A stretch of 64,000 nt of DNA from a virus. Below are positions 28,980 to 29,757 of this stretch, one piece after another. A program made the position numbers and the translations under genes. The notes below the pieces were generated by a model that worked only from the letters and a program-made list of their open reading frames with translations, was not told the origin of the DNA and ran no database searches. The stretch spans positions 32,001-96,000 of the IMG/VR virus record IMGVR_UViG_3300019763_000001. One strand, given 5' to 3'. How positions within the stretch are numbered: position 1 is the stretch's first letter; each line of letters opens with the position of its first letter.

Positions 28980-29721
28980 TTAATAACTAGACACACCTGA
29001 GAGCAGGAATGAATCCTCTAGCACCTAAAAGCTCTGCTAGACATTGTATAAGTGGTTAAGTTTAGTTCTAAGATACTAAACAACTCAGCTATCACAGGTT
29101 CCTATACAATGGGTTATGAGCTATCCGTTTCAAATCGCCGTCATGTGTTGACAGAGGTTGTCAGAGCACACGCTTTTTTAGTAACGCTTCAATCATAATT
29201 CTCTTGGGTTAGATTGTTATGATTAGGTTGATTGCAATACCTAGTTTAAGATAGTTTTGCTTTTAGCTTTCTCGATACACCACTATCAATACTTACTTAG
29301 GGAAACATGGTTAAAAACGCCTATTATTTCACTTTCCTAGTATATGCTAACTTCCGGCTCAACTTATGGCACGAACGTTACAGTCACCATTTCAGTTATA
29401 CGTTTAATGTCTTAACTGAAAACTAATTCCAAGCTGCTCAATGCAAAGATAGTCTCTTAGTACTAGAGCTTTACACCACTTAGAAAGGTGGTTGTTAACT
29501 AAACATCTTCTTTTTCATAATTGACTAATCGGTTACACTATCAGCTTCACCTTTCATCTAATGCACTATCTGTAAGTGTCTAATCCTCTTCAATGTCGAT
29601 CAGATAGTCTCTTAAAGCTTTTAATCCTTAAAGGCTCTAAGAAATCAGGTAAACGCTGATGACATTGATATATTTTGTGTTTGTGTTTTAACGTCTTATG
29701 ACTTGACCAATTTTTAATCAA
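28980..29721 (-). ncRNA. Candidate large structured non-coding RNA (3' end uncertain)
   Basis: No ORF; consensus promoter immediately upstream; many stems (CATTGTATA/TATACAATG, TTTCAGTTA/TAACTGAAA, AATCATAA/TTATGATT, CAATGTC/GACATTG, GTTTAGT/ACTAAAC). Confidence 0.55.
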
Positions 29722-29727
29722 CTTGAG

Positions 29728-29757
29728 ATTATAAGGTATATGATTATGCGTTGTCAA
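29728..29757 (-). promoter_or_regulatory. Consensus sigma70 promoter pointing into the ORF-free region
   Basis: TTGACA-N18-TATAAT. Confidence 0.8.

Follow-up and report, generated by a model that had tools for sequence, protein, structure and literature searches.

Genomic Context of the Locus

The window analysed here, a stretch of 64,000 nucleotides, corresponds to positions 32001-96000 of a viral record of 155,493 bp with terminal repeats. The record belongs to a T4-like phage from microbial mats. Among the proteins encoded in the window are a major capsid protein of the gp23 type, a tail sheath and recombination nucleases of the gp46/gp47 type, and nearly all genes of the window are carried by the minus strand. 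The identical sequence was recovered as contigs in three microbial-mat DNA metagenome runs, with no variation among them. Identity to the closest cultured relatives amounts to only 35-43% in the capsid and gp47 proteins; among these relatives are Pseudomonas phage pf16, Delftia phage PhiW-14, cyanophages and Ackermannviridae such as Vibrio phage 1.244.A.

An ORF-free gap, by far the largest of the window, sits between the late genes and the gp47/gp46-type genes (Table 1). On its late side, the capsid gene is followed by a gene of 741 aa. The product of this gene shows no sequence match in Pfam or PDB; at both of its ends, however, it matches three PHROG families with the annotation homing or HNH endonuclease. 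The last small gene on this side is preceded by TATAAATA, ends 11 nt before the -35 box of the promoter described below (P1) and displays a weak Markov coding score in its two frames. In the segment 30017-30107, a perfect 15-bp inverted repeat surrounds the late-promoter-like motif TATAAATA, the ribosome binding site and the start codon of the gene at 30021. A further ORF of 100 aa (30863-31165, minus strand) matches only positions 120-215 of the 219-position phrog_3633 and may be a truncated or split gene.

Table 1. Features at the locus and positions of the TAG-A junctions. Coordinates refer to the window unless the genome is indicated; +1 is the predicted transcription start of P1.
Feature	Coordinates	Strand	Remarks
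Major capsid protein gene	33791-35140		Late gene, one flank of the gap
741-aa gene	31269-33494	-	Directly downstream of the capsid gene
Final small gene ahead of P1	29769..30021	-	83 codons provided that four bases are read at the in-frame TAGA (29895..29892)
ORF-free stretch, 1.58 kb	28187..29768	-	ORF scan, coding score, no protein relic
P1, perfect sigma-70 promoter TTGACA-N18-TATAAT	29728..29757	-	Sequence scan
Imperfect hairpin, ~79 nt	29590..29668	-	~+53 to +130 of the predicted transcript
AAGAGACTATCT, two exact copies	29602-29613 and 29447..29458	-	Motif search
Bulged hairpin then T6, intrinsic-terminator-like for rightward transcription	29143..29185	+	Read from sequence; not flagged by terminator scan
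Branched domain, 207 nt	28521..28727		Closed by a perfect 20-bp inverted repeat, arms 28521-28540 and 28708-28727
C-rich, G-poor tract, 78 nt	28356..28433	-	C 33, G 3; immediately before P2
P2, promoter TTGACA-N16-TAAACT	28341..28314	-	In cassette 28252..28360 with the 5' leader of the 140-aa gene (start 28186)
TAGA junctions, window	6632, 9209, 11515, 22916, 29895, 48599
TAGT junction, window	7717
TAGA junctions, genome coordinates	21400, 22170, 115980, 117429, 122454, 132141, 133036, 145136
TAGT junction, genome coordinates	18776

A Unique Consensus Promoter Directed into Non-Coding DNA

A sequence-only reading of the locus had placed a consensus promoter firing leftward into more than 700 nt with no ORF, and proposed that a large structured RNA is made from it. 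The promoter was indeed found on the minus strand and is the sole 12/12 match to the sigma-70 consensus on both strands of the 155,493-bp genome. Markov-simulated genomes returned an expectation of 0.42 perfect promoters per genome and of about 0.002 in the gap on the gene strand. An A7 tract lies immediately upstream of the -35 box (29758-29775) and is a possible UP element, and transcription is predicted from the sequence to start near 29721. Near-consensus sigma-70 sites also precede early genes, as at 11755 ahead of nrdA, and the phage therefore appears to use the host polymerase.

The stretch behind P1 proved longer than originally described. No plausible ORF was detected between 29768 and the next gene start at 28186, the longest start-to-stop ORF in the gap being of 55 aa, with a TTG start located within the -35 box of P1. 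Reading through TAA, TAG or TGA, one stop at a time, did not open any long frame in the gap, and reading TAGA or TAGT as four bases gave a longest open frame of 37 aa. With a 3-periodic Markov model for which 111 long ORFs of the phage served as the training set, the coding score was below 0 in all six frames across 28190-29600, compared with values of 0 to +11 for the flanking genes in their own frame.

The possibility of a pseudogene relic was discarded, as the stop-to-stop peptides of the gap matched only a repeated promoter cassette when searched against the phage genome; the same peptides returned no match at threshold in PHROGs and Pfam. Two small plus-strand ORFs, located at 29307-29426 (with an AGGGA-like ribosome binding site) and at 29052-29198, were likewise rejected, with coding scores at or below about 0 and no promoter found. 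For the terminator-like hairpin on the plus strand no matching promoter was identified on that strand either. Searches for tandem repeats, CRISPR-like arrays and ToxI-like arrays in the gap were negative.

A C-Rich Tract and a Second Promoter at the 3' Boundary

The far end of the stretch is marked by a tract of 78 nt, which is the most extreme C>G window of its length on either strand of the whole genome. The overlapping segment 28280-28399, whose folding energy is -0.2 kcal/mol, is essentially unstructured. A rut site should be C-rich, G-poor and unstructured over about 70-80 nt, which is what was found here, and the tract looks like a Rho loading site. A scan for intrinsic terminators on the minus strand between 28187 and 29720 returned none. 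Together with P1, the C-rich tract bounds a unit of about 1.3 kb, a feature that emerged from the present analysis.

Immediately beyond the tract lies a second promoter, P2, in a cassette of about 106 nt in which TTGACA-N16-TAAACT is followed by AACAAACAAAAA and then by the near-palindrome ATAAGC[T/A]TAT. The cassette recurs with about 82% identity at positions 122953-123058 of the genome, in the opposite orientation and ahead of another gene. As the 140-aa gene starting at 28186 has P2 as its own promoter, P1 is not needed for its expression.

A perfect promoter at the start, a likely stop signal at the end and the lack of any gene between them indicate that the stretch is probably transcribed and not translated. 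The portion of the earlier proposal that concerned a promoter-driven non-coding RNA is therefore plausible, being supported by the unique perfect promoter with its upstream A-tract, the non-coding nature of the stretch and the rut-like tract as a boundary.

Folding of the Stretch

The proposed transcript had also been described as highly structured, with at least eight stems, some of them extended by G-U pairs on the minus strand only. Some of the details were recovered, since the 11-bp stem CATTGTATAGG/CTTATACAATG is present in the minimum-energy fold; the general description was not confirmed by the calculations as more than chance. The upper half of the gap, where the structured RNA had been placed, folded with z-scores of -2.23 on the minus and -2.25 on the plus strand, and the lower half with a z-score of -2.78, values near those of same-strand coding controls of equal length (-1.72 and -0.83). 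No strand preference was observed in the fold z-scores of the gap. In windows of 120 nt the mean z-score was -0.58 in the gap and -0.11 outside, a difference to which the windows at 29540-29719 gave rise. By these measures, the bulk of the predicted transcript would be no more structured than the neighbouring mRNA.

Only two local elements, the imperfect hairpin close to P1 and the 207-nt branched domain, fold clearly better than chance, and both are significant on the two strands. The hairpin has a folding energy of -25.9 kcal/mol, with z-scores of -4.22 on the minus and -4.52 on the plus strand; the window 29540-29659 reached -5.45, and the first copy of AAGAGACTATCT falls in the 3' arm of the hairpin. 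The 207-nt domain showed z-scores of -4.93 (minus) and -6.22 (plus). As RNA, its closing 20-bp helix is long enough to be an RNase III substrate, and we regard it as a putative processing site. Because the folds are equally stable on either strand, both structures could also be elements acting at the DNA level. A miniature transposon was considered as an explanation for the 207-bp element and found to be unsupported, as the genome holds a single copy.

A Putative Early Transcription Unit Acting in Cis

Given the unique promoter, the non-coding nature of the stretch, the two local folds and the composition of the C-rich tract, all observed directly, we tentatively favour, with a probability of about 40%, an early, untranslated and lineage-specific transcription unit with a role in cis, either as a leader or as an insulator. 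According to this model, the host RNA polymerase would start at P1, near 29721, and produce an untranslated RNA of about 1.3 kb, which would be ended or gated at the C-rich tract, just ahead of P2. The predicted order of elements along the unit is P1, the hairpin, about 1 kb of ordinary-looking RNA including the 207-nt domain, the rut-like tract and P2. Rho would either stop the RNA at the tract or let transcription proceed into the DNA-metabolism operon, and the 20-bp helix of the 207-nt domain may be cut by RNase III. Rho-dependent termination or antitermination, combined with processing, would then set how much early transcription reaches the downstream operon, the putative site of action being the point where the late structural module gives way to the early module of DNA metabolism. 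Both Rho and RNase III are assumed to be present in the host, and we infer transcription itself, the action of both factors and the role in cis.

Early leaders of lytic phages offer the nearest parallel. One example is T7, where the A1-A3 promoters are accompanied by the RNase III site R0.3, and others are the early units that Rho-dependent termination gates in T4 and lambda. A strong host-type promoter comes first in these systems as it does here; further points of likeness are a leader that is not translated and contains a long helix suitable for RNase III, a Rho-type stop before the genes that follow and a location at a module boundary, processing and termination being predicted in the present case. 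However, those leaders span a few hundred nt, compared with about 1.3 kb here, and share no sequence similarity with the stretch. The unusual length for an untranslated leader counts against a unit acting in cis, as do the absence of the stretch from relatives and the equal stability of both local folds on either strand.

It is unusual for the strongest promoter in a compact phage genome to head an untranslated unit of 1.3-1.6 kb. Should the unit be expressed, the timing of early phage genes through Rho loading sites, long helices and long leaders could be studied in a clean natural setting, and one more orphan phage RNA would join a short list.

Absence of the Stretch from Relatives

The gap was compared by blastn with 50,697 phage records, without any match. 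Both flanking proteins lack relatives in viral contigs, the 140-aa neighbour being a singleton among 5.8 billion proteins, and the nearest gp47 is only 35% identical. A two-motif pattern searched in viral contigs gave 0 matches. The 20-mer arm of the inverted repeat returned 12 single matches in metagenome and genome contigs, a number that roughly corresponds to chance by a rough estimate, and none of them could be extended.

In two relatives with the order gp23 ... gp47-gp46, a syntenic contig of 153.6 kb and Vibrio phage 1.244.A, the position of the gap is densely coded, which indicates that the stretch is dispensable for this type of phage. The genes occupying that position in the syntenic relative (uvsW, uvsY and RNase H) are intact elsewhere in the present phage, and no trace of them was detected in the gap. 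The absence of the stretch from syntenic relatives points to a lineage-specific insertion in a plastic region.

These data also agree with a functionless spacer, namely an old and fully decayed insert between the capsid gene and gp47, with P1 being either a promoter for the downstream early genes or a fortuitous match. We consider this reading possible but rather doubtful. Besides the absence from relatives, it would account for the lack of homologues, of family membership and of repeat structure, for an overall folding close to that of the coding controls and for the position next to a homing-endonuclease-like gene, whose PHROG matches suggest that mobile DNA is active around the gap. On the other hand, as neither coding residue nor protein relic is left, the decay would have to be complete in DNA that a compact genome has nevertheless retained and that forms by far the largest gap of the window. 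Moreover, a perfect promoter, a perfect 20-bp helix and an extreme C>G tract within one gap represent more order than is expected of filler.

Search for a Large Structured RNA

The cis-acting unit preferred here has to be weighed against the original suggestion of a large RNA resembling GOLLD or ROOL. A search of the whole window with Rfam 15 gave 0 matches at the gathering score, and extending the threshold to E<=10 in the region 27900-30600 returned only three chance matches, to snoRNA and miRNA models. GOLLD and ROOL often adjoin tRNA genes in phage or prophage DNA; no tRNA genes are located in the 64-kb window, the three tRNA genes of the genome being placed at its ends. The stretch is comparable to these RNAs in its size class (0.6-0.8 kb or more), in its phage context and in having no ORF. 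The differences are that no covariance model matched, no tRNA gene adjoins it, no multi-helix fold rises above background and no family of homologues was found. An RNA of the GOLLD or ROOL kind, large and structured throughout, is therefore unsupported, on the grounds of the missing Rfam match, of a small folding excess that is equal on both strands and of the distance from tRNA genes, and the present data give no evidence of a new class of structured RNA.

A stable RNA acting in trans could still be conceived in more general terms: P1 would produce a discrete folded RNA of 0.7-1.3 kb, with factors of the host or the phage as its targets. Such a product would fit the ORF-less stretch behind a strong promoter and the two well-folded local domains, and the rut-like tract combined with a separate P2 suggests that the RNA itself might be what the unit makes. 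The recurring motifs pointed out in the sequence-only reading were confirmed, with AAGAGACTATCT present twice and GATAGTG in four minus-strand copies in the gap (three had been claimed; 0.6 are expected), and these short motifs would be able to pair with one another. We nevertheless judge a trans-acting RNA unlikely, as it agrees poorly with the global folding, which equals that of the opposite strand and is near the coding controls, with the lack of an intrinsic terminator or of any other defined 3' end, and with the results of the family searches, in which no homologues were found and hence no base pair has covariation support. Complementarity to the rest of the phage genome does not exceed 15 nt (E 0.17), which also speaks against an antisense action on phage transcripts.

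Comparison with Phage Replication Origins

A strong promoter lying in the only large non-coding gap is also what a replication origin of the T4 oriF/oriG type would display. In such a scheme the P1 transcript would prime replication through an R-loop, with the inverted repeats and the AATAAGC motif as sites acting on the DNA. The motif occurs four times in the gap against 0.5 expected, and the structures are equally stable on both strands, as DNA elements should be. The T4 origins likewise have a promoter directed into non-coding, AT-rich DNA, and downstream of it an unwinding element on which an RNA-DNA hybrid persists; however, they measure about 100 bp, and the present stretch, at 1.5 kb, is ten times longer. 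In addition, the P1 RNA is C-rich and not G-rich over the tract that would be needed to hold the hybrid, although a stable hybrid calls for a G-rich RNA, and the gap contains neither DnaA boxes nor tandem iterons, nor does the cumulative GC skew turn there. An origin at this position is accordingly quite unlikely, slightly more so than an RNA acting in trans, and the cis-acting transcription unit is retained as the preferred explanation.

Apparent TAG-A Recoding in the Phage Genome

A side observation concerns the genome as a whole. At an in-frame TAG followed by A, rarely by T, the reading frame of genes such as those for the gp45 clamp, NrdA, NrdB and Dda shifts by +1; the junctions are listed in Table 1. 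We scanned all stop codons together with the next base, defining a junction as a short ATG-started frame running into a long +1 frame. This unbiased scan returned 9 junctions for TAGA and 0-2 for every other four-base word. TAG ends only 2 of 182 non-overlapping ORFs, in both cases as TAGA. The codons preceding the TAGA sites are not slippery. No description of natural UAGA recoding in a phage was found in the literature searched.

A contribution of the stretch to this decoding was evaluated in two forms. The RNA from P1 might be a new, lineage-specific RNA acting in trans and tied to the unusual decoding of the phage, for instance by sequestering or redirecting a termination or decoding factor at an early stage of infection, which we consider very improbable. 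The least probable of all the explanations is that the RNA is, or contains, an adaptor for UAGA, for example a tRNA-like element whose anticodon loop is expanded: in-frame TAG-A does seem to be read in the +1 frame in this genome and a hairpin at 29492 carries, on a 5-bp stem, the 8-nt loop CUUUCUAA containing UCUA, but about 50 hairpins with UCUA in the loop occur genome-wide by chance, the cloverleaf candidate at 29445-29510 folds with a z-score of -0.15 (86 of 200 shuffles being as good) and the phage already has a normal tRNA-Arg(UCU) that reads AGA, the +1-frame codon of U-AGA. ARAGORN gave nothing credible in the region 28001-30600 (default, -ps, -ps80, -ps70 with introns and -mt modes), and a genome-wide run with -ps80 placed no tRNA in the gap. 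The tRNA-Arg(UCU), located at 154433-154510 of the genome and thus outside the window, is the only elongator tRNA of the phage and has an anticodon loop of 7 nt; AGA is the commonest arginine codon of the phage, with 822 uses. As a decoder at the recoded sites, this tRNA is a simpler candidate than any RNA made from the gap would be.

The +1 recoding of essential genes at TAG-A is partly confirmed, with no link found to the non-coding stretch, and represents the more striking biology of this genome. In 8 of the 9 TAGA cases, 20-58 codons separate the junction from the first methionine of the long frame behind it. Independent assemblies showed no indels at the three TAGA sites that they cover (11515, 22916 and 29895), and the N-terminus of NrdA, when read through TAGA, aligns without gaps across the junction with residues 7-146 of E. 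coli NrdA.
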